From Albugo candida (taxonomy: Eukaryota): a DNA stretch of 64,000 nt. Under the pieces are notes generated by a model, which was not told where the DNA came from, searched no databases, and worked only from the letters and a program-made list of their open reading frames with translations. The stretch spans positions 248,001-312,000 of the forward strand of contig JBDOQK010000015.1 in the NCBI GenBank assembly GCA_040437565.1, read 5' to 3'. Shown one piece after another: positions 1-36,548 of the stretch. Made by a program: the position numbers and the translations under genes. Every line of letters begins with the position of its first letter. Positions within the stretch are counted from its first letter, which is position 1.

Positions 1-15
1 AATTAGTAGTTAGCC

Positions 16-3000
16 ATGGATGCGCCAGCCTCGATTCCAGGCTTTGGCACAATTACGCAACAATCTGAAGAAGTATTATTGTTTGAACCCGATCCGACAT
101 TCTTAGACAGGCATGCTTTAAAAGTTGAAAGAGATTTTCCTTTTCTTGAAGGGACCAAAAAATCGCCAAACATTTCGTTCGAGGACCAAAGAGAGTATGA
201 TGCAGATTTGTTTTTGTTCAATTTTGTTGAAATGGCTGCATGTTGTGCTTCCGACTCTGGTGGACAAGCAAAAGCCTGGTTAGATGTTTTACTACAGACA
301 TTGGGTTTTGCGTTGAGAAATCATGACAAGGTAGACGATCTACTATGCGAATATACTTTCTCATTGATTTCTGTCAAATAGATTGAGCTGGATATCGGAA
401 GTGGTATCATTTGTTGTGATAACAAAAAGATATCACGGCATATGAAGCAAAAAGAGGTACAAGGAATGCAAACGATCTGGTTCTATCCGTCTCCTGGTGA
501 ATATCCTTTGGCTTTTAGATGCGTGATTTGGATGCTCTTCATGACGATTTGTTCACAAAGTACGTACTTGACCTCTGTCAAAGGACTTTGTCATCTGATT
601 GCAGGCTTTGACTAAGAGCCGATAACTCTGATTGTAGAATTCGAATTCCACGTCGCCCTTCAGCATTCGATCACGTAAAACATTCAGATGCGTTGCCGAC
701 GCGATCTCATACAAGAAAACTCAAAGATTCCGCCCCTCAGCGGACAGAATCACCTCGTCAGATAAAGCTCAACCGGAGCTTTGAAAGTGTCAGAAAACAG
801 CAAAATTTGTGCACACATAGCACGAGTTGTGACGAGCCATCAGGCATTTTTGTTCCTCTATTTGACAAGATGGGGCAGACGTTGTGCGTAGAACCAGACA
901 TGCGCACGGCTATGGCTCCATCTAATAGAATAGGCTCCAATTACACGCCGACGGCTCTGCAATTATGCATGCATAGAGGTCTAACATCGGCGGGAATATC
1001 TTTGAATAATGAATCTTTCAATCGGGGAGAGGTTCATGAGTGGTCTCAAGCGGTAATAGCTGATGAAGTTGAAGCTTCCGACAATCGATATATGAGGTAT
1101 CTGAACGAGCTGGATGAATATGATCATCTACAGTGGCAAATTCCGCCCCCTTCGTGTGACTTTATCGATTCTATTTTTCAAGCTTCAAAGAGGCACCTCA
1201 ATGTATTACTTGATCACCCAAAGACTTTCAATGATCAGCTTATTTCTACATTGAGGGTGGAGCTCGCGAGAAGATACACTCGCAGCACACGAAAGGCTGT
1301 TCTCAACTACATATTACTTCGTGATACAACGAGAAAACGACTTCAAATTTATCATGGATCTCCTTCGTCGATGGTGCTTCCAAACAATTTTGTCTGGAAT
1401 AATCTGACCGGAGACGAATACGGATGCCTGTCAGATCTAAAGGCTCTGATCTCAAGCACCCCGACCAAAGCACTTACTTCAAATTTGAGGCAGACTGAAT
1501 GCATGATAAAAGATTCTACTTCACCTCGTTCGCTGATAAATCTACNNNNNNNNNNNNNNNNNNNNNNNNNNNNNNNNNNNNNNNNNNNNNNNNNNNNNNN
1601 NNNNNNNNNNNNNNNNNNNNNNNNNNNNNNNNNNNNNNNNNNNNNTGGAATAATCTGACCGGAGACGAATACGGATGCCTGTCAGATCTAAAGGCTCTGA
1701 TCTCAAGCACCCCGACCAAAGCACTTACTTCAAATTTGAGGCAGACTGAATGCATGATAAAAGATTCTACTTCACCTCGTTCGCTGATAAATCTACTATG
1801 GATACTGTCAAAACCACAAGCGTATACTGTTCTGAAGACGTCATACGCTATGCTTGAGTCAATTCAGCTATTTGATTTACCATCATTAGAAGCACTTTCA
1901 AATTTTAACTCGTACGGCTCTCAATCGCAAGGCACACGGCCTTTGTACCTGCTTGGGTTCAAGGCGAAGCAAATTCATCACGCAGAAAAATCGAAAGAGA
2001 TATTTATGAGCTTTTGGCATCATCAGGCCTCTAAATTGCTTAATGAACCGAGTCCACATGGTCCAAAATCATCTCGTTCAGTTTCCGAACACGCACTTGC
2101 GTCGATGACGGTTATCATGTCGCTACAAGCTCAGAGTATCATAAGTACTTCAATTGAAGTATTTCTCCGATTTTTGAATCATTTTGACTACAAAATTGAT
2201 CCAAGCGAAACAAATAGTCTCATACTGACCCCAGAGGAGCACTTATTCGAATCGCCACTGGTGGGATTTTCAGTGGAATTGAAAGTGGATGGGAATCGTG
2301 TCCGACTAAACGTCGAGCACGAAGACATAAGCGAGCATCTTGTTGAAACTTTTCAGCTCGCAATCAAGGTCTTTCAAGACATCCCATCCTTAGAGAATCA
2401 AATCATAGGACATGATTGTCACAAGTCATCATTTACGTGGAAGACGGACAGGATACACGATGAGTATTCCAAAGCTATCAATGAAATACGACGAGTTTGC
2501 CGAAAACATGTGGTATTTCTGGATCACGTCTGCCATCAGCACACACAAATACTTGCGCTGTACCAGGATTCAATATTACGAGAGGTTTTAGACGATCTCA
2601 AACGAGCAGCATGTGATACAAATGTGTGTCGGGAAGCGATACGCAAGTTGAATAATGCTGCAGATCGACTTTCGGAGTTGTCAAAGTCGGTTATGTTTCT
2701 GAACCTCTTTTGCTTGGACTGCAATCAAGTACAAGTGGAAATGCACAAGACTATTTCTGAGTGGTTTCATTGTATTTCGTGTGCATATGGTGACATTACA
2801 GCTAAGAGAATTCATGCGCTGCGTGATATGTATGAAGACATTAGGAATGTACTTGCAAGTACACCAAGAAATTCGCATGAGTTGGTGGCTGCTGAGATGT
2901 ACATCAGTGAGCTACAGAATTCGAAGCTGCAAGGACTTGAGGCTGCGTGTAAAGAAATTGAGACCAGACTAAGTTTTTTGATACTTGAATGCTATCAAGA

Positions 3001-6000
3001 ACCACCTAATAGCATTCATCAGTCATACAAAGAGATGATTACTATGGACGCACTTTCGATATACAGAGAATTGACTCGATGGCCATTCCATATCAAAAAC
3101 GCAGTCGATGACGCTGAAATAGCTTTGGCATTGGCACGAAGGAAATTGGAAGAAGCTTTCCATGATCATCGGTTGACTTTTCACCGAGAGATAACTAGGC
3201 TTGCTGGTCAAGTCACCACACTAGCAGAAGCCGCCGATTTGATTTACCCATCAATGTATGCTATTCAAGCCTCTGCAATACAGGAGAGACTGAAGGACAA
3301 TCGAGATATGCTTAACATGCTGATGGAAGAGGAGAGAGTTCTCGGGATTCAAAGTAACTGGAGTGTCTCGCTAACAATGGATGATCTATCGAAGACCGCG
3401 TCTACACAGAAGCAGATCTGGTCGACGATACGTGACTTTCAGGAACTTTCCAATCGTCTATCTCGATCGGTTCTTTCTGAACTGACTTGTGAATCCGACC
3501 AGGCGATCCTAACGAAGATGATAATAACACTCATAGAATGTAATCATTCTCCTTGTGCAGGTGAAACGGCAATCAAAAACACTATCGAGAACGCTCAACT
3601 CTTTTTGGATATCATCAAGCTAGTAAATATGCTTTTGCATCCAGCTATAGAAGACCGACACAAGCAAGAAATGACCGAATTACTTGGGATGCATTTCGAT
3701 GAACTTTTGCAACTTACTCCACTCGCACTCATCCAGAACGGAGTCATGGACCAAATAACTAAAGTGGGACGCATTTGCGAGTTGGCTTTGTTTGAGAAAG
3801 AGGTGGAGAGAACCCTGCAAGAAATTGCAGCCGAATGGCGAAATGCGGGCTTTATTTTCAGCACACAGCAACATGTCAGCATACGAGGTAGTTGCGATGA
3901 GATGCAAAGCATGATCTTTTCAGTATCAGATGCTAAGGATCTCGAGATTATGATCCAGGATCATCAGATACGTCTGGAAACGATCCAGTGTCTCCGCCCT
4001 GATTCAGTCTTGAAACAGTATCGCGATGAATGGATGTCATTTTTCGAAAAGGTAAATTTTCTGGCCCATAAATTGCTTATCTGCAATCGACAGTGGCTAT
4101 CGTTGCGCACACTATACTGCAAGTCATACTTCTCCGGGATCTTTAAAGATGATGATGTCATGATATGTGCTAAATGGGAAGGTGTAAAGGCAGCATACTT
4201 GGAAACAATACATCGCATTACTCTTCATCCTCGATGCATCTTTATTGTTCCGGCTCCTCATTCTTTATACATTGACGATGGTAACAGCCTTGGCACAGAA
4301 AAGATGTCTCAAGACGACGTTGCAGTCAAGTCACGGCACTTTATCCAAGCCATTGACGAGGTGTGTTTAGAGATGGATTCTGTTCAACAGAGATTACGAA
4401 TCATACTCGATCGAACGCGGGAACTATTTCCAAGATTTCATTTCCTATCTGATATATCACTGGCAGAATTGCTCTCGCATTTGTCCGTGACAAATGATCA
4501 ATCTAAAGCTAGAGAATTGTCTATCTTGGAGGGAACCGTTACATCAGTAAGAAAGCACTCTAAGCAAATCAAATTATGCTTTCCAGGTGCCGATACGTTA
4601 CAATTTGATGCTAAATCACACCAAATTATAGCAATAGTGAGCTCACAAGGCGAAGTTTTCTCAGTAGCATCCTCAATCACTACCAAGAATGTACCTGTGA
4701 CTCAATGGCTGAAGCATCTTGAAACGTGTATGCATCGAACGATACATGCATCTCTTCGAGCGGCGATGCACGAGATGGACGAAAAGGACTTCAAGAAGTG
4801 GTGTATGTCATGGCCGGAACAAGTTGTACTATGCACAATCTGTCATTTCTGGACTCTGCAAGGGGAAGCCGCCAATCGGGCTTTAGACACCGAGACACAC
4901 AGCCAAAATGGAATTTGGACTTTCCATAAATCCAAAAACGCTTGGGATCTTGTGGTTAAGGATTTAAACGAGAAATTACGAGCCATTTCAGATGGTATGA
5001 ATTCTGCAAAGAGACCTCATCACAGAAAAGCACTGGAGGACGTGATCATACTTTTAAGACATCTACGAGATGTGTCAGTCAAGATATTGAATGAAGTCCA
5101 AGCTGCGGAAAGTATTATCTGCCCTCATCTGGAGAAGAAGACAAACCGAGGAAAAAGCGAGACAGCAGTCACAGCCAAGAATATGGAGAATTTTGGGATC
5201 TCTACTTGGCTTCTGCAACCACGATATTATTATGAGGAGAATCAAGATCTCATAATTCGCATTATGCACAAAACCTCTCTGTTTTATGGTTACGAATATC
5301 TTGGAAATGATTCCATGTCATTTTCAGTCAAGCCGTTAACGCTGAGGTACTCACTGGCACTTTTCCAAACCGCAGTTCATTTAAAAAGGAATTGCTGCTT
5401 TGAATCGGATGCAGTATCAAGTGTTGGCATTCCAACTCTAGTACATGAACTCAGCAAATCCTGTGGCCGCTTATGGATAAAATTCTCATGCCAAGATCAA
5501 AGCATCAGGGAATACCATACGCTGCAGTACGATAAATTAATGAACTTTGCCAGGGGTGCAGCATCAACTGGGGCTTGGCTTTTGGTTGAAAACGCCCAAA
5601 GGATAGGGAACAGTAAGCACCAGATGTCTCAACTCGCTAATTTTGTACAACTATGCGCAAAGATTAGCGAGAAACTTCTCAGTAAAAGCCCGAGCTGCGA
5701 AGCTGGAGGAACTACAATCTCCTTACGTCGAGGACTTCAAATTACCATGATCATGAACAAACAGAAGCTATCGAACCCAACGATGGAACGAATGTTGAGC
5801 ATTGTGCGATCTCATTTTCATAGCATCCAAGCAAATCTTCCTGATTTTGACATCTTGATTGAGAGCTTGCTTGCTAAAGCTGAATTTCAATTTTCTCGAA
5901 CTACAATCCTAAAGCTCTCAGCGATAATGGCGATAGTGGAGACTGATCTCCTGGAAAATGGCTCCTTTGATGAGCGTAAGCTAGGAAAGGACGGAATGAC

Positions 6001-9000
6001 GCATGATAAACCACTTGCTTTACTCGTCCGGACTATCGCACGAGCGGTCCAGATTCAGTCCATTTTGCTGGAGAATCTCACACTCTCTCGATATCGCGAT
6101 ACTTCTCTCAACGCTTTTGGTACTCGTGAAAAAGAAAATAATTTGCGAGCGAATAAACATTTGGAGGAAGCAACTTCGTTAGCAGAAATCAAACAAATCA
6201 TCATAAGCGAAGGCACAACAGTATCTGAAGTGCAGAAGCTTGAAAGCTTGAGTCTGGCTCGAGGTTCGTTTGAGATACTTCGTTTCAATATCTCAGAAAG
6301 TGTCATGGAAGAAATAGCGGAACTGCTACAACAAATTCATCCTAATTTTGAACAAGAGGTCAGCAAGATCAGAAACAGCTCCTTACGGATTCCGCTTAAT
6401 GTGAGAGACCAATACACACAGGTTTCATCTCACCTTGATAAATCTTCGAGCAAAAAACTTTGGCTCGATTTGATGGAGAAGGGATCATCACTGGAAGATG
6501 TAGTGACAGAGTACACTTCTACAAGCTGTGTTATTAGAGCATCAGATGCATCACTTGCCACAAAAACTCGGCAACTCTGTGAGGTATTACAGCTCGGTCG
6601 TCTAGTGATTGTGAGTGGAAAAACACAAGCTGGCAAAAGCGGAGTCATCATGACGCTATTGGAAGCTTGCAATACATTGCATCACATAGCTGAAAATGTT
6701 GAAGAAATCAAAGAACGAAGGCAACGTCAGGAGAAAGTAAAAGGAGCACTGTGCCCCCGGCAGAAACAAATCTACAGTAATTCACTTCCATCAGCTTCGT
6801 GGAATAATGAATGGTACCAAAACAAGCTCGTTGCCTCTACGCATCAAGTTGTTATAATGCACCAAGCAACAACATGGAAGAAATTCATTGGACTTGATAT
6901 ATTTCTTCTTGCGGAGGATTGCGTATTAAAAGAATGTGCAGAGGAAGGCACAATATGTCGAAATAGAGATCTGCTAGATCAGTTGATTTGGGATGCAGTG
7001 CTAAGGCATCATCGAAATGGTGTACATACCTGGCTTGTCCTTGATGGATCGATCGATACCTCCCTATGCGAATGGTTGATAAAGTATACAGGAAGCCTGA
7101 TTCAGCGATCACGTTACGAAGTATTGGATCGATTTGATACGCGAGATCCTGTATTGCCAGATTTTATTCGGGTTATCGCCGAAACTGAGAATCTATCGAA
7201 TGTGAGCCCATCCATCCTTTACAGCATCGGATACGTTAGCATGTCTTTACAAACTGAAGGTTTTGTACAGGAAGTACCCATATGGCATGATCTTTATTTT
7301 TCATGGCGACGAAATCATATAGCAAAGGGTACATTCAACTCGGAAGTACTCGGCATGCTAGATGACTTGATGGAAGAAGTGGTGACAGAGAGCTTGAATT
7401 TTGCGGATGCAAATTTGCTGTCATCGAAGGCATATTCCGATTATTCTCGGAAGTATATTTATCGAAACTATCGAATGCTTTGCCGCATTCGTCAATTGCT
7501 CGAGTATTTTGAAATCTTCGCCAAGCATCAGTGGAAGCAATGGACAGCACTTACGAGCCTGAAGCGGAATATCGCGATTTCGTCCTTCTTCTTGCAGGCT
7601 CTAGTATGGGGAGTTGGAAACACGTACGATAGAACAGAACAGGTGAAGTTTCAGGCCTTCTTGCGTGAATTCGCGCTAAAAAGCGCGCCTAAAATGACCG
7701 CGTCGATCAGCTCAGTCAAAAGTGTTTTACTGGATTCTTTTTTAGCGAAAGATTCCACGGGATTTATGGCTGATGAAAAGTCTGTCTACAAATTTGGTTT
7801 TCTAATAGAAAGTGGAAATCTCAAATGGATGGAGTGGACACAATACTATTTGCATTGGCTCGAATCCATTCTCAGCTCGGACTTTATAAAGTCCGACGCG
7901 CCAAACGTGTCAGATGACACATCAAATCGGATGGCTGGTGTTGTAAACTATTGCAGAGCATTCTCCAAAGCGGTTACTGGATGCCGAGTTGTATCAAAAG
8001 AGCATTTGCAGTTTTGGCAGCTCGTCTCAAAATACAAAAAAGATGACGTTTCCTCTCTGCGTATGCCAACATCAAACGAAGTAGCAGCACTATGTATTTT
8101 AGATCAAGTAATGGATGATGGAACTCAGTACTCAGCTCTTATTTCGGGCCCAACCGGATCAGGGAAAACACGCCTCGGTCTTCAATATTTGATCACACGT
8201 GAGTTTTCACATCATTCATCAACTGAAGCATCGTTATCTTGTGAGGCTCTACATCGAAGATTCAAAAAGCTTCACGGTCAATTTCAGCATATACAATTGA
8301 GCTCAGGTAGTACCGCCGACGGTATTATGAACCAAATGCTTCCTTTCTTAAACACAAACGCCCATCATATATATCGGAAAAAGTGCATTTCTGATGGCTC
8401 GCCTGTAGTCCTCTTCTTTGATGATGTTCATTCGGTTTTACCCGACGGTGAATCGTGTCAAGGATCTCCCCATGTTCAAATGAGTATAGCGACCGAATTA
8501 GTGAGGATGATAGCTGATCAAAAAAAGCTTTTTCATCTTAGTAGTGATGGAAATTTTGAGAATGTACCTGGACTGAAGGTATTCAGCTCGAGGAGCATCA
8601 GTGATGCACAACTGGGATATCGACGCTCCACCCTCGATCGAATGTCTCACAGATTCATTGATATCGCGATGCCCGAAATGAGTGATCGAGATTTGTACGA
8701 CATCTGCACCGAAATCATCTCTCATTATATTTCTTTACCGGGTACATCTCGCTTATCCGAACAAAGTCCGTTGACTGAAGATAATGGAATTGATTTAAAA
8801 TTTACAATGAGAGTCGCTAAAGCAAGTGTGTGTATCTTTCAAGTCGTTTGGCCATCCTTTGGTATACTTGATTGCCGTACAACAGATGATTTTAGCTTTG
8901 AAAGCTCCATGTTATCGTCACATATTAACGAAGATGTATCTAATTCTGTCAAAGAATGCCGGCTGTCTTACCAAAGTCGCTTTGCATGCAAGAATTCTTG

Positions 9001-12000
9001 TCTTTTTCTCGATTCCGACTTAATTTCTCGTGTACATCGGTACCATGTTGATGACTTGTGCCAACTCGTTCGACGTGTATGCATCCAAGCGGTAAATTGT
9101 CGGAATACGATCGACATTTCTTCAAGCTGGTGTAGCGAAGTTGATAGGATTTTTGGATATCGCTTGCTTGACGCTCAATTACGTCAGGCGCTCGTACAAA
9201 AAGCCCGCAGTGTTGCGTCCTCCTTTTTTGGCCATCTTGAAAACCAGGCCTACGTCATCGCTGATGTAGCCCATTTCATGCCACTATTAAATTCGGCTTC
9301 CGCAGAAGGCCTTCGTCAGCATTCCGTGGTGATGGCCTACGGCGTCAACGTACTTGATATGATAGAGAAGGAGGAATCAATATGCAACAAAACAATTGTT
9401 GTTTATGATGGACGATTCAAAGGTGCGAGTCATATTCGTTGGCTTGCATTTTTTAAGAGAATCATTTTGCAATGTGTTTCATTATATCTGTCACGGCTTC
9501 CTGAAGCTAAATCAGAACCAACTCTTCTGCTTTTCCAAGACGATGGAAGTTACGATCACCAGGCTTCTTATCAATTGATCGAATGGTTCGCTTTGGGAAT
9601 GCACAGAGTACTTGAAGACGCGCTGCATCTTTATCGGGATCTCAGTCCTATTTTCATCGATCAATTGAAAAGTTATGAGGCACTTCAAAATCAAGAGCGT
9701 GAAAACAGATCTGGCTTCACAAATGCAGGCGATCCATCCTCCCGATTTCTAGTATCAAAAGCGATTTACAATATTGCACGGAAGAATCTTCATATTGCAG
9801 TTATTATGCATCTCGAATATGCTAAAATCCCACGTACGAAAGGGCTACGGACACGAAATTCCGTTTCAATCACATCGACAATCAGACGATATTCTCATTT
9901 TTTCGACGCCTGCAACATGACTTTCTGTGGTCCTTGCCCGGATGAGACATTAATCAGCGAATCAGAGAAAATTCTGGATGGAATTCCACAGCTCACTGAT
10001 CAGGAACGGAAATTGTATGCTTCCGTGGCGGTTCAATTCCTGCAAGAAGCTCGCAAGAAATCAGAAACGGGTGGAGACATCGAAGAATTATCTTGGGACG
10101 TGCTAGGTTCCGTCGTGCATGCAGATCTCATTAATCATCATCTCTTGATATTCGTCGATCAGTATGAGCGGGTACAATGCCGCATACGGACTCAGCTCAA
10201 GAGTTATCGCGCTGCTGTGCTGTTTCTCGACGAGTTGGAAACGGAATTTTCCAAGCAAAATTCTCATGATACATTCCTCCGAGCTCAGCACCAAGAAAAA
10301 TCAGCATTAACGTGGGAATCGTACGGAAACCTTGAGAAAGAGAAATTGGCAATCATTAAAGCACAAAAACAGGTTGATGTTGCGAAAGATTTACACCGGC
10401 TACAAGGTGAACGAGTTAGCAGTATTGAGCAAGAATGCAAGGTATCATTTCAGCATGAAGAATTGTTCGTACATCAGCACCAGCGAGTCAAAGTTCTGGC
10501 TGATACGATTATCTTTACCATGAGTAGACTAAACGAGGAGAATGAAGCTATTCAAGACTTCTTTGAGAAGGAAGACAACGACGTCGAGCGTAATATCGAG
10601 AGCACATTTCTGAAGCAATTCCCGGATTTGTACAACGTTGAGCGCTTCAGTGGAGAACAGAGAGCAATGATAAGCATCAATTCGACGGTACAGGCTTTTT
10701 TAAATTTGCCAAACCATCCACTTTGTCCAATATTTTTCCATTTGTGTGAATGCTTGGCACGTATTTTGCATATTGATGCGCACAAAAAACAGATTTCTGC
10801 TGAGAAGGAAGAGACATTTGATGATTTCATGACGGCTGTAAAGATGCAAATGTTACGTCCTGATTTTTGGTACGAAATTCGAGACTTGCAAATATCTCTT
10901 ATCAAAGAATCCGTTTTGAGTCGAGTGCTCTGTCTCGTTACGACTATGGATATCAGCGCATTGCAAAATCCTCCTCTACACCCATTCGTGTCTATTCTGC
11001 ACGATTTTGTTAAAGCTGTAGCATTTTGTCTACGTGATCGCGTTTCGTCGAGTGTCAAATTGGGTCACTTGCAAGAAGAGCGCAAACTATTACATCAATC
11101 TCAGTTGCACATTTCTTCAGTTCAATCCGTCAACAGATCGCACCAATCATGTATAACAGATGCCGAAAGCCTTCGGCAAGATTCAGAGTTGGCACGGGAA
11201 TGCTTGGCGAAGAAAATCAAGGAAAGCACAGAAAGAATTAAACAACTTGAGTCCCTAAAGTATGCGACAAAAGATAAGAGGAAAAAGATTCAAACTCGAT
11301 TTGAGAAGCTTACAGAGGCTTCAGAAGAATGGATAGGTGATTTATTCATGGTTTCAGCGATGATGACGTACCCAGAGAAGTTGATCCATCAATTCGATCT
11401 GTTGAAATGCTGGGATACAATTCTAACGGCTTTTCCTATTCGATGCAATGGTATCTGGAAAAAGGGAGTGATTTCTTCGAAAATGACTAAACATTTACAA
11501 CAGCTTTTCGGTATCAGAAAAGTGGTTTTATCAGAATGGGGCATACAAGGGCTTCCGGCAGATGATCCTCAGACAGTTTTCGATGTTATCAGAGTACTGC
11601 ATACCAAAAGGATCCCTTGCCTGATAGATCCGTCCCAAGTTGCCACAGAGTGGATCAAGAATGTCCTGATCGAAAGCAGATCGTTTGTTATTAGTTGTGC
11701 TACTCAGTGTGCTTCTTCCACCTGCAACGGTCTCCTTAACCCAGCATTCCCTGATATCGACGAGGAATGTGCGCTTTGTAATACAATCAAACGGCACAAC
11801 GATCTGCAGAATCGATTCCTTCTGACAGACTTTGACGAAAATGCCGCATATCACCTTCGCTTCTTTCTGAAATCGTATCAGTGGACGCGGTTACGCTTAC
11901 GTGGGAGGAGTTCTCAAGCTTTGCTCAGTAAATCCGAAGAAAGCACCCTCCATCAGCATCTCGGAGATGATGTAATTCATCAAATTTACGTCTCGCTCTC

Positions 12001-14629
12001 TCCACAGAGCGTTTGCACATTGCAAGAGGGCCAATGTCGGATTAGAATCCCTCAATGGTTGCATCTGATGGACAGAGAGCTCCACGTGATTTACATCCGA
12101 CACTCAGATGTCTATTTCACGCAAATGATTCAGAAGAAGGTCCTCGAAGGGACTGGAAATTCTTATCTGATCCCTCAGGTAGACTTGTTGATAAGCAAAA
12201 TTATCACATGCAATAAAGAGCTTGATATATTGGACGATCAGCTACTGGCATTATTGACTAGAAATATTGATAACAGAAACGATCCAAGCATCGAATCGTG
12301 GCAAGAAAACAGGATGTGGAACTTAACAAGCATCGAGGAGATGAGTGTGGTTAGCAGTCGAGTGCTTTCCGATCGGTCAGCCTATGAATCAAACCTGCTG
12401 GAAAAGCGAGCGCTAGAGCATACACTTGACCAAGTGCACGTAAAGCTGCAGAAGTTTGAGGGCTTCATCAATCTCATTTTGGGAATCCGAAAAGCTTGGG
12501 CTCGTGCAAATGCTTACTCGATTGCGTTTCGGCTCACGTTACAAAAGGAGGACGTGAAAGCCACTTCTAGGCTTGCAGACTTGTCCAGTCTTCGAATAGA
12601 AGATACTTTTTGGCTACCACAGACCTGGTTACTTGAGCTTGTTGGTAAGGTGATGAAGCAACACAACGCAGAGTTACCTTTTGAACTTGTAAGACAATTA
12701 TTTCTAAAACAAGCGCATGCGTATATGACTTCCCGGCTGCAAACTCATCACGGAATATTATACTTCAATTTTCTCATCGCATGTGAAATCATCAAACAAG
12801 ACATTTCTTCATCGAGATTCTCATCGGTGAACGTTTTCGAAGAGTACCTGCGGCGATTCATGACTGTCGTGCTGTACTGGAATGCCTCTCAAGATGCGCT
12901 TACGACGCTACTAGTTGATAAATGTACTGACGGACCTTTGTCAGATTTAGGCGATCTGAGGCCTAATGGTGTCAGCTCACAGCAATGGCAACTTGTACAG
13001 TATCTTGCCAATTGTTGTGAGCCGCTACATGAGTTTATTTTATATGTAGACAACCTTACTCTTGATGCAAAACAGCGCGTATGGGATGTATTAATGCACT
13101 CAAATGCGAGTGGATGGTACACAGAAAGCAGTTCCAGCGGTCTATCGTGGTTCAATATGGACGACAATGATCCGTCATCATCGCTTCCTTCATGCTTGGC
13201 TCCCTACTCAGTAGACCATACTCTTGTGCGTATCTCGCTGGCCGCAATATTCGCTCGGCAGCACCTTCAAGAAGAAATGGGATCATTTTATCATACTGTC
13301 ATGCAAAATGCCAACACAATTTTAGCTACCAGTATTTCAGATTTGAAACGTGAGTCCGCAAAGAATTGTCGAGCAGATTATGCTCACTCTAATCCAAGCT
13401 CGTGGAGGCATATCAAAGAAATATGGAACACATCATGTGCATCTCAACCTTTAATGGTGGTAGCCACATCCTCCGAACACGAAGCTATTTTTTGTATCAA
13501 AACTATAGCTCTGGGCTTGGAAATAAAGACTATACAAGCCGATATGCAGCAGTACGCGTATCTCGATCAATCTACCAGCGATAAGTCCATGTTCTCAACT
13601 GGAGTAACATCGCCTTGCGCTGAATTTCGAAACTGGATCCTTCCAGCCATGTGTGCTGGTAACTGGGTCCTATTTCCGCATGCGGACCTTTATCTATTTA
13701 GTGTATCCAGGGCCATAGAGTTTATCGAAACAGCCCTGCACAGCATTGACAGTATACATGAGAATTTTCGAATATGGTTTGTCGTACATATGCCTAAAGA
13801 TGCGCAATCTGAACAGCGAGAACTTTGGCGTACTTGGTCGATTTTACAAAGTGGTTTTACATGTGAGCTGCATTATGGCGTACGGTACGCCTTTGGTGAC
13901 TGCCTCACTCAATCTGCTTACATTTCAGTGGAATTGATGGAGGCGCTGGGCATAGATACAAAATTTGAGAGAAATTTTCTGTTCTTGGCGATTTACCACG
14001 GCATTTTGGTGTGGCTTGGAGGTCGCTCTTCGTGGGAAGGGATATGTGATAGTGATCTTCGGTCGGTTATCGATATTGCAATGCGAGTATTAGGCACCTG
14101 CTGTGATGAAAGAATGGCCGATTTGAATGACGGTGAAATCTGGTCTGAAGTCACGGCAGCTACCGTAACAGTGTATCATAGCAAGATGAGGAATCAAAGT
14201 ACTAGAAAAATGGCTGAAAATTTGCTTTATTCCTTAGTGACGACACGGTGTGAAGGCAATTGTTATTGTAGATTTTCTTTGTTGCCTTCAATTTGGGTGG
14301 AAGAAGCACCAGTGCACACTCAGATGGAATTCGAGGAAGTTGAGGCAACCATACCTCTGTTGAAATTGGCGAATTTGACTCGATTTGATCAGATACTTGG
14401 CCAAGATTGGCGAGACATCTGTTCGAGAGAAGCATTTGATATCACGAAAAAGGCAAGCGTAGATGAGCTTGCAGATGAGATTTACGGTCAACCAAAAGTC
14501 GATTCTAAGTCGCCGTGCTTTCAGTCATCTGCAGTCGAGCCACTAGATAGCCGACAGGAGCAGGAGCTCAACTTGATGGCGTCTATATTCTTGGCCAGCT
14601 GTGGTCACAATCAGCCAATTGAACAGTAG
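16..14629 (+). CDS. Divergent axonemal (inner-arm, DNAH3/7/12-like) dynein heavy chain with probable N-terminal CCDC81-type HU-like module; the 5' end may lie outside the window
   Basis: 4376-aa ORF with dynein motifs in canonical order: linker RELFPRFHFLSD..LAELLS and QWLKHLETCM; AAA1 entry YGYEYLGN; AAA2 SGKTQAGKS; AAA3 GPTGSGKT and VLFFDDVH; AAA5 WGIQGLPADD..IPCLIDPSQVATEWIKN; AAA6 GNWVLF..HENFRIWF. Tail motif RKAVLNYILL resembles single-headed inner-arm dyneins. Proposed exons: 16-330, 382-456, 519-559, 638-1545, then 1797-14629 after removing the gap and the 151-bp duplicate (14172 nt, 4723 aa). The 5' exon model is less certain than the dynein call. Confidence 0.88.
1395..1796. repeat. 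Gap-flanking duplication (1395-1545 = 1646-1796), assembly artefact
   Basis: Identical 151 bp on either side of the 100-N gap at 1546-1645. Collapsing it joins ORF 693 in frame to the dynein ORF. Confidence 0.95.
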
Positions 14630-15655
14630 CAGTACATCTAAGAAGTATGCTTTACATGCATTGGCGTCAAGTAGTCTGGTATCATTGTAAGCTCTAAATA
14701 TGATGAGGTACACTGTCGGGTTATGNNNNNNNNNNNNNNNNNNNNNNNNNNNNNNNNNNNNNNNNNNNNNNNNNNNNNNNNNNNNNNNNNNNNNNNNNNN
14801 NNNNNNNNNNNNNNNNNNNNNNNNNATGTAGAACTCCTACACATGGTATACACTACTTCAGACTCAAGATTATCTGTGGCTGTTTCATCAGCGACAGACC
14901 CATACCGTAGGCATACCGGTTACATGAACATATGTCTCAATTGATGCCGAGGACTCGAGCACTCAGTTCTGCGTACACAACAAAGAGTAGGGTTACAAGT
15001 CGTGAATTGATCGGTATAGCCTCTTTCATCCGCATATTCTATTACTCGCGCCAATATTGGCTGTGGAACTTAGCGTACCGTTACAGTAGAATAGAGAAAG
15101 CTGAGAGAGATTAACGATACAATCTGAACCAATCAGGATGAGCTGACTTTTTTTTTTTTGCCGATATGAGCAAGAATCAACGACGTGGACAGTCATTACA
15201 ATTCATCTCCTAGCTCTTATCGGTACTTTAGTAAAGTACAGTTCATACGCTTGTTTATTGCTACATTCGTCCGTTGAATGTTGGAGGGTACACATGTTCG
15301 TGTCAAATGCACAATCCGATAGATACCGGGATTTTCATCCAATAAGACTCTGCGTTTGCCTTCAAAGGTCACAATCTGTAGAACCGTGTATCAGCTCTAA
15401 ATTGGCTAACACTGCCAAATCTGATAGGCGACAGTCTTGAAGAACTGGTGAACCAGGAATCCAGCAGCTTAGAAAAGTGTCAAGCGAGCTACGTATATCG
15501 TGCAAACTTATATATGCGAACAAAGTTATAAGCTCTTACAGTGATACTGGATCTAGCATCAACTGACGTTTATTGCAGTGCAAAATTTTCCATAGAGCTC
15601 GAAAGATAAACTAGTTGCGAAACAAATTTACAAACGATACGTGGCTGCATATAGA

Positions 15656-16240
15656 ATGATAGTATCAAGCAAGATATCAAATAATCAATGGAAACGATTC
15701 TCTACTGATTCACATAAAAGCATTTCCGATCGACATGAAGTGACACATCTACGACGACGCGATTTGCATGCGTGCAATGCATCCGAGCAATCCTATGGAA
15801 GTACGAAAAGAAAAAAGAGTGTTCGTTGGGATAAGATCACTGTGTATGAATTCGGTGTTGGTCTAGGCGGCAGTACTGTGTCTAACAGAGGAGGCCCGTC
15901 AATTGGTCTGTCTGAAAAACCCGAGTTCACCTGGTATACAAAAGTCGGAGAAATGGCAGAGTGCAGTGAAGGTATTCATCGTTTCACTCCTGAAGAAAGA
16001 GTTTACTTATTAAAGACTGCTGGAATTGATGATGAAATAATTCTTCGATATTCCCGTGAAGCCTCAATCATACTAGGATCAAGAAAGCGTACGATGGCAG
16101 AGACAGTGAAGGAACGTCAGCGACAACGCCATAAAAGGCGAACCATCGACTCTCTGGACCAAACTTGCTCCACTTATGCTCAAAAGCGGCCAGCTTTGAT
16201 CCCAGCCAATTATGATTTAGCAATTTTACTTAGTGGTTGA
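15656..16240 (+). CDS. Small basic protein with a CSRNP-N-like motif and an RVxF-type PP1-docking motif
   Basis: Single ORF, first ATG at 15656. RKKSVRWDKITVYEFGVGLGGSTVSNRGGPSIGLS resembles the CSRNP N-terminal pattern (V.FD.VTVYYF.R.QG...VPSQGGS.LGM). Basic NLS-like tail RQRQRHKRR. Confidence 0.6.
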   Translation: MIVSSKISNNQWKRFSTDSHKSISDRHEVTHLRRRDLHACNASEQSYGSTKRKKSVRWDKITVYEFGVGLGGSTVSNRGGPSIGLSEKPEFTWYTKVGEMAECSEGIHRFTPEERVYLLKTAGIDDEIILRYSREASIILGSRKRTMAETVKERQRQRHKRRTIDSLDQTCSTYAQKRPALIPANYDLAILLSG

Positions 16241-31526: not shown

Positions 31527-34500
31527 ATGAATAAGAGGTTTGTTAAAGGTGCCAATAATGGCGAGAACCAGGAGTATCGTAATCCACTAATAAAGCAGTT
31601 TGTCCTTGAAAAAGACCGACCTGTCAAGATCAGTCATTTGAATTTTGGACTATTGTCGGAAGTTGAGATGATGCGATTGTCAGAGATCCGGGTCACCAGT
31701 CGAGATCTATTCGCAATCCAATCTCGCGATCCTGCAAAAAATGGTGTATTGGACAAACGCCTTGGAGTTAGTAACAAAGCAGACACTTGTGATACATGCA
31801 ATTTACGCCTATCGGACTGCGTTGGTCATTTTGGTTACATTAAGGTATGATGCCATTTTAATATACTTATTGAACTTTTGATGTAAGAGCTTTTTGCCAT
31901 AGCTGGAATTGCCGGTTTTCCACATTGGATACTTCAAAGCGACATTAGAAATCTTGCAAATGATTTGCAAAGAGTGTAGTCGGGTCTTACTATCGCTCAA
32001 TGATCGAGAATTGTTCTTGCAACGTGTTCGAGATCCCCGAGCTGACGCATTACGACTTAAGGCACTTCGGAAAAAAATGGCTACATTATGCAAACGAGTT
32101 GTAAAATGCCCTCATTGTCAATCTGTTAATGGAACTGTACGCAAAGTGAACTCATCGACACTGAAATTAGTTCACGAGAAATTCCGTGCAAAGTCTGCTC
32201 AAGATTTACGAAATGTCTTCGTCGCTCAATTTAGGGAAGCTCAGACGATTAATCCCGAGATTCGGCAGCACTTGCCAAAAGCACAACAGGATTTATCTCC
32301 ATTGGTAGTACAGGAGCTTTTTGAACGCATACCTGATCAAGACTGTGAATTACTGTGGATCGATTCGTCACTTGGTCGACCAGAAAAACTTTTACTGAAC
32401 TCGCTACTGGTTCCTCCCGTTTGCATACGTCCGTCCGTTGCGATGGATGCTGGCGCGGGAAGTAATGAAGATGATCTGACAATCAAGCTGCAAGAAATCC
32501 TCCAAGTCAACTTCGCGCTGCATGCTGCACTTCGACAGGGGGCTACACTAACCATGGTCATGGAAGACTGGGATTTCCTTCAGATACAGGTTGCGCAACT
32601 AATGCACGGCGACACACCCGGACTTGCAAAACCAATGAATGCACCCAAAAGCATCCGCGGATATTGCCAGCGACTGAAAGGAAAACAAGGTCGATTTCGA
32701 GGAAATTTGTCGGGGAAGCGTGTAGATTTTTCAGGCCGAACGGTCATATCACCAGATCCTAATCTCCGAATTGATCAAGTCGGTGTGCCACAGCACGTTG
32801 CCAAGACCATGACGTACCCAGAAAAAGTCACCCGATACAATATACACAAGTTGCGTAAATGTGTTGTGAACGGGCCAACTGTGCATCCTGGAGCGAATGT
32901 AATACGCCTCCAAGGTCAAAATCTGACAAAAAATTTATCGTATGGTGATCGTGCCAATATGGCAGACGATCTGAAAATTGGAGATACTGTCGAACGTCAC
33001 ATGGAAGATGGAGACGTGGTCTTGTTCAATCGTCAGCCTTCTTTGCACAAAATGTCAATCATGGCACATCGGGCGAAAGTCATGCCCTGGAGAACTTTTC
33101 GTTTCAATGAGTGCGTTTGCTCGCCCTATAATGCCGATTTCGATGGAGACGAAATGAATATGCACCTGCCACAAACAGAAGAAGCGCGTACTGAGGCTTT
33201 GACTTTGATGGGTGTCGAGCACAACATGATCACACCCCGAAACGGAGAACCTTTAGTCGCCGCAACGCAGGACTTCTTGACGGCTTCGTACTTGCTGACA
33301 CAAAAAAATATCTTTCTCAATCGGGAGCAATTCTGTCAGATGATTGCAATCATGAGCGACGCGGTCGAACACATTGACATGCCGGAGCCTGCAATCATTC
33401 ACCCGTTACGCTTGTGGACGGGAAAACAAGTGATCAGTCTACTGATTAAACCCAACAACACCTCCTACGTACTGGTCAATCTAGAATTAAAGGAACGCAA
33501 CTACACCAATAACACGTATATGTGCTACAAAGACGGATACGTGTGCTTCCGTAACAGTGAATTGATGTGCGGGAATCTATNNNNNNNNNNNNNNNNNNNN
33601 NNNNNNNNNNNNNNNNNNNNNNNNNNNNNNNNNNNNNNNNNNNNNNNNNNNNNNNNNNNNNNNNNNNNNNNNNNNNNNNNGACGCGGTCGAACACATTGA
33701 CATGCCGGAGCCTGCAATCATTCACCCGTTACGCTTGTGGACGGGAAAACAAGTGATCAGTCTACTGATTAAACCCAACAACACCTCCTACGTACTGGTC
33801 AATCTAGAATTAAAGGAACGCAACTACACCAATAACACGTATATGTGCTACAAAGACGGATACGTGTGCTTCCGTAACAGTGAATTGATGTGCGGGAATC
33901 TATGCAAGAAAACTCTTGGAGATGGTAGTAAGCAAGGACTATTTTATGTGCTTATCCGTGATCATGGCTCTCATGAAGCAGCCAGATGTATGAACCGACT
34001 AGCGAAGCTATGTGCTCGTTGGCTTGGAGGCTCCAAAGGTTTCTCGATTGGAATTGATGATGTGACACCATCCGAGCATTTAATGGGGAAAAAGAATGAG
34101 CTTCTAGAGAACGGCTACACTGGTGCTAATGAAGCCATTGAGCAATACCGACTTGGTAAACTTCCTTTGAAGCCTGGATGTAACGCTATCCAGTCTCTAG
34201 AATCCGAGCTTAACGGGCTTCTTGGAAAACTACGTGAGACCGCGGGAGCGGAGTGCATGCGAACACTCCCCTTCCACAACAACCCACGTATAATGGCTGA
34301 ATGCGGCTCAAAAGGGAGTGCGTTGAATATATCGCAAATGGTTGCATGCGTTGGCCAGCAGTCTGTGAGCGGTAAACGTGTACCTGAAGGCTTTGTCAAT
34401 CGGACACTACCTCATTTTCTTCCCCACGCTTTGCATGCAGCCGCAAAGGGTTTCGTGGCTAATTCCTTTTACAGCGGCTTGACGGCCACCGAATTTTTCT

Positions 34501-36548
34501 TCCACACAATGGGAGGACGAGAAGGTCTCGTGGATACTGCTGTAAAGACAGCCGAGACAGGTTACATGGCTCGAAGGCTCATGAAGGCACTGGAAGACCT
34601 TTCATGTCAGTACGACCGGACTGTGCGCAACTCAGAGGGAGCCGTTGTCCAGTTCATGTATGGTGATGATGGTCTGAATCCTGCTTTCATGGAAGGTGAC
34701 GATCGGCCCGTGGATTTCAACCGTCTATACGAGCATATTCGAAGCACTTTACCGGATAAGGAATCACGGTCACTTCTCCCATTCGAAATCAGACTCTTAG
34801 TGAAGAATGCAATGCTCCGCAAGGAATTCCAAAGCATCTTACCAGCGGGTCGCAAATTTCTCATTGAAATCGAAGAATTTTTCAGTAATCTAGCATCCAG
34901 GATAGCTAAGACACGTACCAATGTTGGTGTCGATTCAATGGATCACACGCTTACGCCGTACGCTGCGAAATTGGAAAAGATGATAGAAGACAATCTGGCG
35001 ACTCCAACCACTATGAAACCTTCGGATCAGCTGTCGCAAAAAAAGCCAAAGGTAAAAGTATTGAATTTGATGCGCTCGAAATCAATCAAAGATGAAAATA
35101 CGAGCTCAAGTGTGATCAAGAATGAAAAGGACCCGATTTTTAACCATGATGATATTGACGTTGATGACGTGGAGACAGCAAAACAGTTCTGGGCTGCACA
35201 TGAGCGAGAAGAATTAGACACTGTCGATATGTGCACATGGGAAAAGGCCAAGTTTAAAGATGCAGCAGTGCGGAAGCTTTGGATAGAGAAGGTTAAAGAA
35301 CGAAATACATGCGAATCTCGCGAAGCAGGCTGCCTGATCTCGCATAATGTGTGCCGGATTACTGAAAGTCAGATTGAGAAGCTCCTTGAAGTATCGTTGT
35401 ACAAGTATCATCGCGCTTGCATGGAACCTGGAGAGGCGGTTGGTGCCATCGGGGCACAATCGATCTCAGAACCCGGTACACAAATGACGTTGAAGACTTT
35501 TCATTTTGCCGGTGTAGCAAGTATGAACGTCACACTAGGCGTGCCTCGATTGAAAGAGATTATCAATGCCTCCAAACAAATCAGCACACCCATTATTACG
35601 GCAGCACTTGTCAATAAAACAGATGAACGCTCCGCCCGGATTGTGAAAGGGCAAATCGAGAAGACAACTCTCGGTGAGATTGCAGTGCACATCAAAGAAG
35701 TCTTTGCTCGTGATCAAGCGTATTTATCGGTTGGTCTCGACGCACACGCCATCAAACAACTTCACTTGAATATAAGCGCCCAAACGGTCCGGAACAGCAT
35801 CCTAAAAGCAGTGGGGATCGGACCACGGAGTATTTTGAGAATGCTGAAAGAGCAGCATGTCCTATTGAATGCCCGATGTCCATCCAAATTGCGAATTCTT
35901 GCACCAAGCAATCAAAAAACATCATTTACTCGGGGAGCATACTTCACGATGCAGGCGTTGAAAGCCGAACTCCCCAATGTTATTGTACAAGGGATTCCGC
36001 AGGTCAACAGGGCTGTAATCAACTATGAGGAAGGCAAAACAGATTCTCACGGAGTGCGAACACATCATCTGCTTGTTGAGGGCTACGGCCTGGCGGAGGT
36101 GATGGGAGTTCCAGGCGTGGATGGTCTAAACACTCGATCGAATCATATTGTTGAAGTGGAAAAAACTCTGGGAATCGAGGCTGCAAGGGAACTCATCAGC
36201 TCAGAAGTCAGTTATATAATGAGCGCGTACGGAATTGGGATCGATCGCCGACATCTCATGCTGCTATCCGACATTATGACGTTCAAAGGGGAAGTTCTTG
36301 GAATCACGCGTTTTGGTATTGCCAAAATGAAAGAAAGTGTTCTCATGTTGGCTTCCTTCGAGAAAACCACTGATCATTTGTTCGATGCAGCGGTGCACTC
36401 ACGTACAGATGCAATTGTTGGGGTCAGCGAGTGCATCATTATGGGCATACCCATCCCAATTGGAACAGGGATATTCAAGTTATTGCGAAGAGTAGAGAAA
36501 CCAAAAATCAAGCACCCAACACCTTTGCTGATGCAATTTGAGATATGA
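31527..36548 (+). CDS. RPC1: DNA-directed RNA polymerase III largest subunit
   Basis: Zn-binding CDTC..DCVGHFG, QRLKGKQGRFRGNLSGKRVDFSGRTVI, Pol III-type PWRTFRFNECVC, NADFDGDEMN, EPGTQMTLKTFHFAG, ESVLMLASFEKT; no heptad CTD. Intron 31845-31902. Split by the gap at 33581-33680 with a 223-bp duplicate. Confidence 0.97.
33358..33903. repeat. Gap-flanking duplication (33358-33580 = 33681-33903), assembly artefact
   Basis: Identical 223 bp on both sides of the 100-N gap, inside RPC1. Confidence 0.95.

Follow-up and report, generated by a model that had tools for sequence, protein, structure and literature searches.

The dynein heavy chain encoded at the start of the Albugo candida window (the whole stretch of 64,000 nucleotides that was analysed) belongs to an oomycete-wide class derived from DHC7, very probably Kollmar's class 14, and with a probability of about 60% we take it to be a non-motile pseudo-motor of the zoospore flagellum. 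The family itself is not new, as it fits the class 14 of Kollmar (2016); what is new here is that the whole oomycete class appears to be catalytically dead. The alignments indicate that the defect arose in two steps, a class-wide loss of the AAA1 Walker B glutamate followed by further losses in Albugo.

The gene and its AAA1 site

The gene spans positions 1 to 14629 of the forward strand, on which all domains and motifs described below also lie, and encodes a class-14-like heavy chain of about 4,800 amino acids, as delimited by tblastn of the A. candida record P0003 and by ORF translation. The same tblastn search placed the first exon about 283 bases upstream of the window, thus the gene start lies outside it, and a single long exon runs from about 519 to the stop codon at 14627-14629, with an open frame of 4,376 codons at 1499-14629. 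The gap of 100 N at 1546-1645, with its 151-base flank 1395-1545 duplicated at 1646-1796, is an assembly artefact, and database proteins continue across it. The window holds other 100-N gaps (14726-14825 and more), several likewise with duplicated flanks, which split or duplicate gene parts; the gap at 14726-14825 corresponds to 12 bases in the contigs of three runs. One gene model (P0193) appends a separate-looking ORF at 15596-16240 to the dynein end, other records end at 14629, and the fusion is probably a prediction artefact. Judged by eye from translations, the neighbours at 17676-61623 look ordinary (protein kinases, a transporter, a FYVE protein, a RING ligase and a DGAT2-like acyltransferase) and the largest subunit of RNA polymerase III is encoded at 31903-36548. 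Pfam matches of the window protein were DHC_N2, AAA_6 and the AAA lid, with weak matches to AAA_7 and AAA_9; the closest solved structure by sequence was DNAH7, and the nearest records were from A. candida, at 98%, and from A. laibachii, at 67% across the searched region.

The large domain of AAA1 (5285-5959; PF12774, E 1.4e-11) keeps its fold, including the framework motif YGYEYLGN at 5285-5308, and has lost its catalytic motifs. Alignment with DNAH7 sets ESDAVSSVGIPT (5402-5437), which has a two-residue insertion and no lysine, on the Walker A motif GPAGTGKT, and VENAQR on FDEFNR. The Walker A lesion is specific to Albugo, and that of the Walker B remnant LLVENAQR (5579-5602), with Asn in place of the catalytic Glu, is class-wide. 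Arginines are lost in Albugo at the sensor II position (KPLALLVRT, 6008-6034) and at the arginine-finger position of AAA2 (SPSILYSIGY at 7205-7234, canonically SPATVSRCG); in the HMM alignment Ala occupies the former, Ser the latter and Asn the Walker B Glu position. The sensor I region ITMIMNKQ (5741-5764) has its Asn and has lost the PGY loop, the alignment of the loop being less sure. Both A. laibachii records read ESDVVSSIGIPT and VVENTQK at AAA1, the AAA1 core is unchanged in the five further A. candida protein records, of which one equals the window protein over the aligned length, and a contig of run X20 across 5145-5451 agrees with the window at every letter. The degenerate Walker A and Walker B claimed in the earlier note were thus confirmed by the DNAH7 alignment, independent assemblies and A. 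laibachii, and a consensus error was ruled out by the other A. candida records, A. laibachii and the contigs. That the true AAA1 Walker A lies elsewhere was ruled out by the alignments and by an AlphaFold model (13 sequences), in which ESDAVSSVGIPT is the loop that connects strand 1 to helix 1 in the AAA+ domain. The best fold matches of the model were dyneins and its AAA1 core had a pLDDT of about 60-89, and at a pTM of 0.39 the model is readable for local fold only, not for domain packing or the pocket. The alignments support the view that AAA1 of the Albugo protein cannot act as a canonical ATPase, and because the Walker A Lys, sensor II Arg and arginine finger are lost, the chain should be unable to bind ATP at this site.

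In the rest of the protein, the tail end and linker (DHC_N2, 3380-4762; PF08393, E 1.5e-38) group with DHC7 (DNAH3/7/12) in HMM ranking and tree. The P-loops of AAA2 and AAA3 are kept, as had been read earlier: SGKTQAGKS of AAA2 at 6614-6640 is intact, and AAA3 (8147-8431) has GPTGSGKT at 8147-8170 and the Walker B LFFDDVH, as in canonical single-headed dyneins. AAA4 reads HSVVMAYGVNV at its P-loop position (9320-9352); its degeneration extends across the clade and is strongest in Albugo, and the AAA2 and AAA3 P-loops are kept. The microtubule-binding domain (10526-11023, limits approximate) lies between stalk helices of canonical length, is identical at 81 of 116 residues between A. candida and A. 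laibachii, and carries an insertion at its start, which may abolish binding in Albugo. AAA5 (11534-11689) gave a partial match to PF12781 (E 1.2e-5) that, at 25 bits, stays below the cut-off of 27.4, and the same domain is listed for most clade members. Alignment, Pfam scan and downstream search agree that AAA6 with a shortened end (13616-14629) is followed by no C-sequence: both Albugo proteins stop in or just past AAA6, PF18199 had no match on the window's contig, and no missed C-sequence exon was found within 3.4 kb after the gene. Several Pythium, Phytophthora and Achlya clade members have a C-sequence. The description of the dynein as full-length does not hold for the Albugo chain, from which the C-sequence and also the AAA4 P-loop are gone. 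Elsewhere in the genome, C-sequence-like matches with stops or introns occur apart from heavy chain genes (C33:366656-367382, C127:5203-5538 and C90:8414-8755).

An oomycete class and its lost glutamate

Several searches, among them an HMM search of 1.84 billion representatives in which scores fell at the clade boundary from 253 to 234 bits, together gave a clade of 42 rows from Albugo, Pythium, Globisporangium, Phytophthora, Nothophytophthora, Lagenidium, Achlya, Saprolegnia-like organisms, Aphanomyces and others. All named members are oomycetes, of nine genera, and about 15 further members are environmental records. In the motor tree (FastTree) of 31 clade rows and 14 canonical references, from which P0102 was dropped as gappy, all the clade rows grouped together at support 1.00, and the stem leading to Albugo measured 1.44 changes per site. 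The tail and linker tree (FastTree) grouped the clade with DHC7 at support 99, on a long branch, and in the ranking by the clade HMM the DHC7-type chains came top at 403 bits, followed by DNAH1 (at most 296) and DHC9 (192), with outer-arm beta tails near the bottom. An insertion of some tens of residues in the microtubule-binding domain is present in 16 of the 17 clade rows listed, Albugo included, and absent in Achlya and in seven canonical references. Kollmar described class 14 (DHC14) as oomycete-specific, with an extended loop in the microtubule-binding domain, no C-sequence in Albuginales and an alignable AAA5, unlike classes 15 and 16, in which AAA5 is not recognisable (PMC5100056). As both the loop and the missing Albugo C-sequence are found here, the clade is very probably class 14, an identity that rests on distribution, loop and missing C-sequence rather than on a tree against Kollmar's labelled sequences.

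The ten other dynein heavy chain genes of the genome all encode GPAGTGKT and C[FL]DEFNR at AAA1, and one of them (L009) is DHC7 by best match; the class-14-like gene thus encodes an additional chain, and no essential one has been damaged. Four Pfam scans of the genome, which give lower bounds, detected neither class 15 nor class 16. A candidate second degenerate dynein (L016, on C3) was rejected, since its translation reads by eye as midasin, in which six AAA domains are combined with an acidic tail and a MIDAS-like end. Two further loci were observed on minus strands. L022 (C19:471924-468898) is a frame of 1,009 amino acids resembling a DHC9-type dynein tail, which ends inside DHC_N2 with no motor in 17 kb downstream, as for a tail-only or split heavy chain, and L023 (C6:677236-678092) is a lone match resembling AAA5, broken into several pieces; the 10 kb retrieved there contained no further dynein domain. 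Three Phytophthora models (P0096, P0102, P0205) fuse the class-14-like orthologue to a RuvB-like helicase, which suggests a neighbouring gene there.

The Walker B catalytic Glu occurs in none of the 39 filled clade rows of the HMM alignment (three further rows are gaps), where its position holds Asn in 31, His in three, Asp in three and Ser in two, and 128 of the 137 other dyneins that this search retrieved have it; the clade rows are not independent, several being from the same species, and six short Phytophthora fragments were excluded from the motif count. The Walker A Lys is present in 38 of 39 non-Albugo rows, the remaining one reading SGRKA, and absent in both Albugo species. Outside Albugo the sensor II Arg is kept in 32/36 rows and the AAA2 arginine finger in 33/34, both being lost in Albugo; the sensor I Asn is found in 0/39 rows outside Albugo, yet is present in Albugo. 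The further losses in Albugo are those of the Walker A Lys, sensor II, the arginine finger, the AAA4 P-loop remnant and the C-sequence. Of the AAA1 loss that the earlier note had proposed to look for in orthologues, the Walker B part is shared by the whole sampled class and the Walker A part belongs to Albugo. Exchange of Glu for Gln blocks hydrolysis and retains binding, and AAA1 mutagenesis abolishes motility (PMC2533788). Under these AAA+ rules, because Glu is lost while Lys and, mostly, sensor II and the arginine finger are kept, most members outside Albugo probably have ATP bound at AAA1 without hydrolysing it. The rows with Asp are from Aphanomyces and Achlya, and this residue might leave some activity in their chains.

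Constraint, flagellar link and rival explanations

From 1646 onwards the whole gene is represented in contigs of runs X15 and X12, and those of X17 include most of the gene, with the frame intact in all three runs; stretches without cover in X17 and X20 were not used as evidence. Among the 40 of 269 variants listed, the only indel inside the gene is an in-frame 3-base deletion, and the 40 SNPs listed (18 synonymous, 22 nonsynonymous) give a pN/pS of 0.37, or 0.47 with transition weighting. An indirect whole-gene value of about 0.55-0.7 combines 68 amino acid differences from P0198 with 105 nucleotide differences from a contig of run X15 and assumes that P0198 and this contig of the same length are one contig. 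The amino acid difference to P0003 is 2.0%, and that of a canonical dynein to P0154, the isolate of which is unchecked, 0.5%. Constraint in Albugo is relaxed, at a pN/pS of about 0.4-0.7. A dead pseudogene, which the earlier note had also argued against, was ruled out by a frame that, in both species and in several isolates, stays open for about 13 kb free of stops and frameshifts, and by a pN/pS that remains under 1 despite relaxed constraint. Between A. candida and A. laibachii the altered AAA1 core is identical at 83 of 106 residues (78%, against 60% overall), in the top 2% of 106-residue windows, and it lies in the longest stretch without polymorphism among four alleles (residues 1233-1512, permutation p 0.024). 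Conservation of this core is above average in four other pairs too, which points to a maintained fold and not to a particular function of the aberrant residues. Between the Albugo species, identity is 80-85% in the P-loop regions of AAA2 and AAA3 and 58% in the tail, the latter not being preferentially conserved; between P. infestans and P. capsici the tail and linker are 73% identical against 48-62% for the AAA domains.

The supplement of PMC6264045 counts 1, 1, 1, 1 and 0 gene models with PF12774, a domain that clade members carry, in Peronospora effusa, P. tabacina and Hyaloperonospora, and 15, 19, 17 and 22 in zoospore-forming Plasmopara and Phytophthora. Because the non-flagellate downy mildews have 0-1 heavy chain gene models, the flagellar role envisaged earlier is likely, and the class would have been lost together with the flagellum if the lone downy-mildew model is, as we infer, cytoplasmic dynein. 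No downy-mildew orthologue was named among the near-length matches or eight shorter ones (8,000 candidates scored); flagellated, zoospore-making Plasmopara equally yielded no member, so this search gives no evidence of loss. Zoospores of A. laibachii are motile (PMC3130010). Run X17, guessed to be an RNA run that may contain DNA, gave spliced contigs of a neighbouring gene and also covers the class-14-like gene, one contig extending several kb beyond its predicted start; transcription is only hinted at. For the P. infestans orthologue, the table of PMC3471859 has 56 "dynein" places, the first 30 of which could not be assigned to it, 12 of the 14 supplements of PMC13674864 gave no match and an accession search was empty.

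The location and function of the Albugo chain, like its expression, are what we infer, and the structural, tethering or assembly role suggested in the earlier note is conjectural too. With the catalytic Glu lost class-wide, most members would bind ATP at AAA1 without hydrolysis and stay in one fixed conformation like DNAHX, and the Albugo chain would hold no nucleotide there. Tail, linker, ring, stalk and microtubule-binding domain are retained in the Albugo chain. As the tail is of DHC7 type, it would dock at a single-headed inner-arm site with actin and p28, the regular DHC7 partners, and the non-cycling head could help, beside normal DHC7, to shape the beat passively, whether as spacer, cross-link or damper. 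More tentatively, and with considerable doubt on our part, class 14 may be a natural experiment on the dynein cycle in two steps: a single Walker B change in the oomycete ancestor would have produced an ATP-trapped, weak-binding pseudo-dynein, and Albugo would then have lost AAA1 nucleotide binding entirely. The Albugo dynein would be frozen in an apo-like, strongly bound state and serve mechanically only, as cross-bridge or brake, perhaps in just one of the zoospore's two flagella, which are unequal.

A locked chain might instead pair with axonemal dyneins and keep them autoinhibited in preassembly or intraflagellar transport, rather than sit in the axonemal repeat. Such a role has been proposed for DNAHX with its phi particles (PMC11785096), the insertion in the microtubule-binding domain resembles that of DNAHX, and, outside Albugo, trapping of ATP at AAA1 would promote the pre-powerstroke state on which phi depends. 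We consider this unlikely, given a tail of the single-headed DHC7 type instead of a dimerising outer-arm tail and an Albugo chain without the residues needed for holding ATP at AAA1. Somewhat less probable still is slow decay in Albugo, in which part or little of the protein matters and the losses of Walker A, sensor II, arginine finger, AAA4 and C-sequence are tolerated drift. The very long Albugo branch, a pN/pS of up to about 0.7, amino acid variation about four times that of the canonical dynein and the truncated end would all fit decay, but not the roughly 13 kb of frame free of stops and frameshifts in both species and in several isolates, the sole listed indel being three bases and in frame, nor the rank of the AAA1 core in the top 2% of windows and the 80-85% identity of the AAA2 and AAA3 P-loop regions.

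A slow motor powered differently, through AAA3 or residual AAA1 activity, is very improbable: AAA3 has a canonical GPTGSGKT in Albugo, AAA2 is intact and three Saprolegnialean rows have Asp at the Glu position, but the Walker B of AAA3 has the DD of canonical single-headed dyneins, and the degenerate AAA4, which supplies the arginine finger to AAA3, has no Arg at the finger position. With AAA1 mutagenesis abolishing motility (PMC2533788), the differently powered dynein considered in the earlier note is a weak proposal. We find it highly improbable, too, that the chain is a non-flagellar scaffold of basal bodies, flagellar roots or sporangial cleavage that was lost together with zoospores. Co-loss with zoospores cannot separate the flagellum from other zoospore structures, and Globisporangium ultimum and G. 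splendens, which seldom form zoospores, carry a clade member. The tail is nevertheless of inner-arm type, and tails predict axonemal sites, as Kollmar argues (PMC5100056).

Relation to known pseudo-dyneins

Judged by its sequences, the whole class, conserved from Saprolegniales to Phytophthora, probably produces no force, contrary to Kollmar's supposition that new dynein classes evolved new force-producing properties (PMC5100056). Pseudo-dyneins would then have arisen independently once more, here from an inner-arm chain, and the class would offer ATP-trapped and nucleotide-free versions for comparison. The class would make testable what non-motile dyneins do in flagella, a question likewise open for human DNHD1, and may bear on the swimming and turning of oomycete zoospores. 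AAA1 loss recurs across dyneins, and the non-motile kind is already known (DNAHX, DNHD1); none was found described for the oomycete family, nor any paper addressing whether oomycete class 14 is catalytically active, in the literature searched, most subscription journals lying outside it, and Kollmar's alignment files and the DNAHX figures may bear on it.

With Kollmar's class 14 the clade shares its restriction to oomycetes, the extended microtubule-binding loop and the C-sequence missing in Albuginales. The difference concerns the ATP sites, which that paper left without detailed analysis; neither the class-wide Walker B loss nor the Walker A loss of Albugo is stated in its available text (PMC5100056). 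The nine other dyneins without the Walker B Glu in our HMM search include insect DNAH7/12-like chains and one from Mesostigma. These chains with a degenerate AAA1 Walker B (P0232, P0239, P0326, P0338 and P0278, the Mesostigma chain having 6,200 amino acids) are possible further independent pseudo-dyneins. DNHD1/CCDC35 (Kollmar class 11) is likewise an orphan heavy chain that has lost the catalytic Walker B residues of AAA1, and it is needed in cilia (PMC11785096). It is a metazoan class, compared here by description and not by sequence, and its different taxonomic range suggests an independent origin.

The single-headed inner-arm chains DHC7/IAD-3 (DNAH3/7/12) resemble the Albugo chain in tail and linker homology, in domain order and in the AAA2 and AAA3 P-loops. 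The Albugo chain has about 20% identity to them and differs by insertions, a missing C-sequence and lost AAA1 motifs, the GxxxxGKT, Walker B Glu, sensor II Arg and AAA2 arginine finger of motile DHC7 all being absent. Sea urchin sperm contain DNAHX, or dynein-X, a non-motile chain whose degenerate AAA1 is ATP-trapped. It pairs with another heavy chain in phi particles, and a role in assembly or transport was proposed for it (PMC11785096, a preprint). The likeness to it lies in the degenerate AAA1, the insertions in stalk or microtubule-binding domain and the presumed lack of motility. However, DNAHX, which was itself not among our references, is an animal chain of outer-arm origin that keeps Walker B and binds ATP, whereas the oomycete class has a DHC7-like tail, would derive from DHC7 and has lost the Glu class-wide, and its Albugo member is without the ATP-binding residues and the C-terminal cap.
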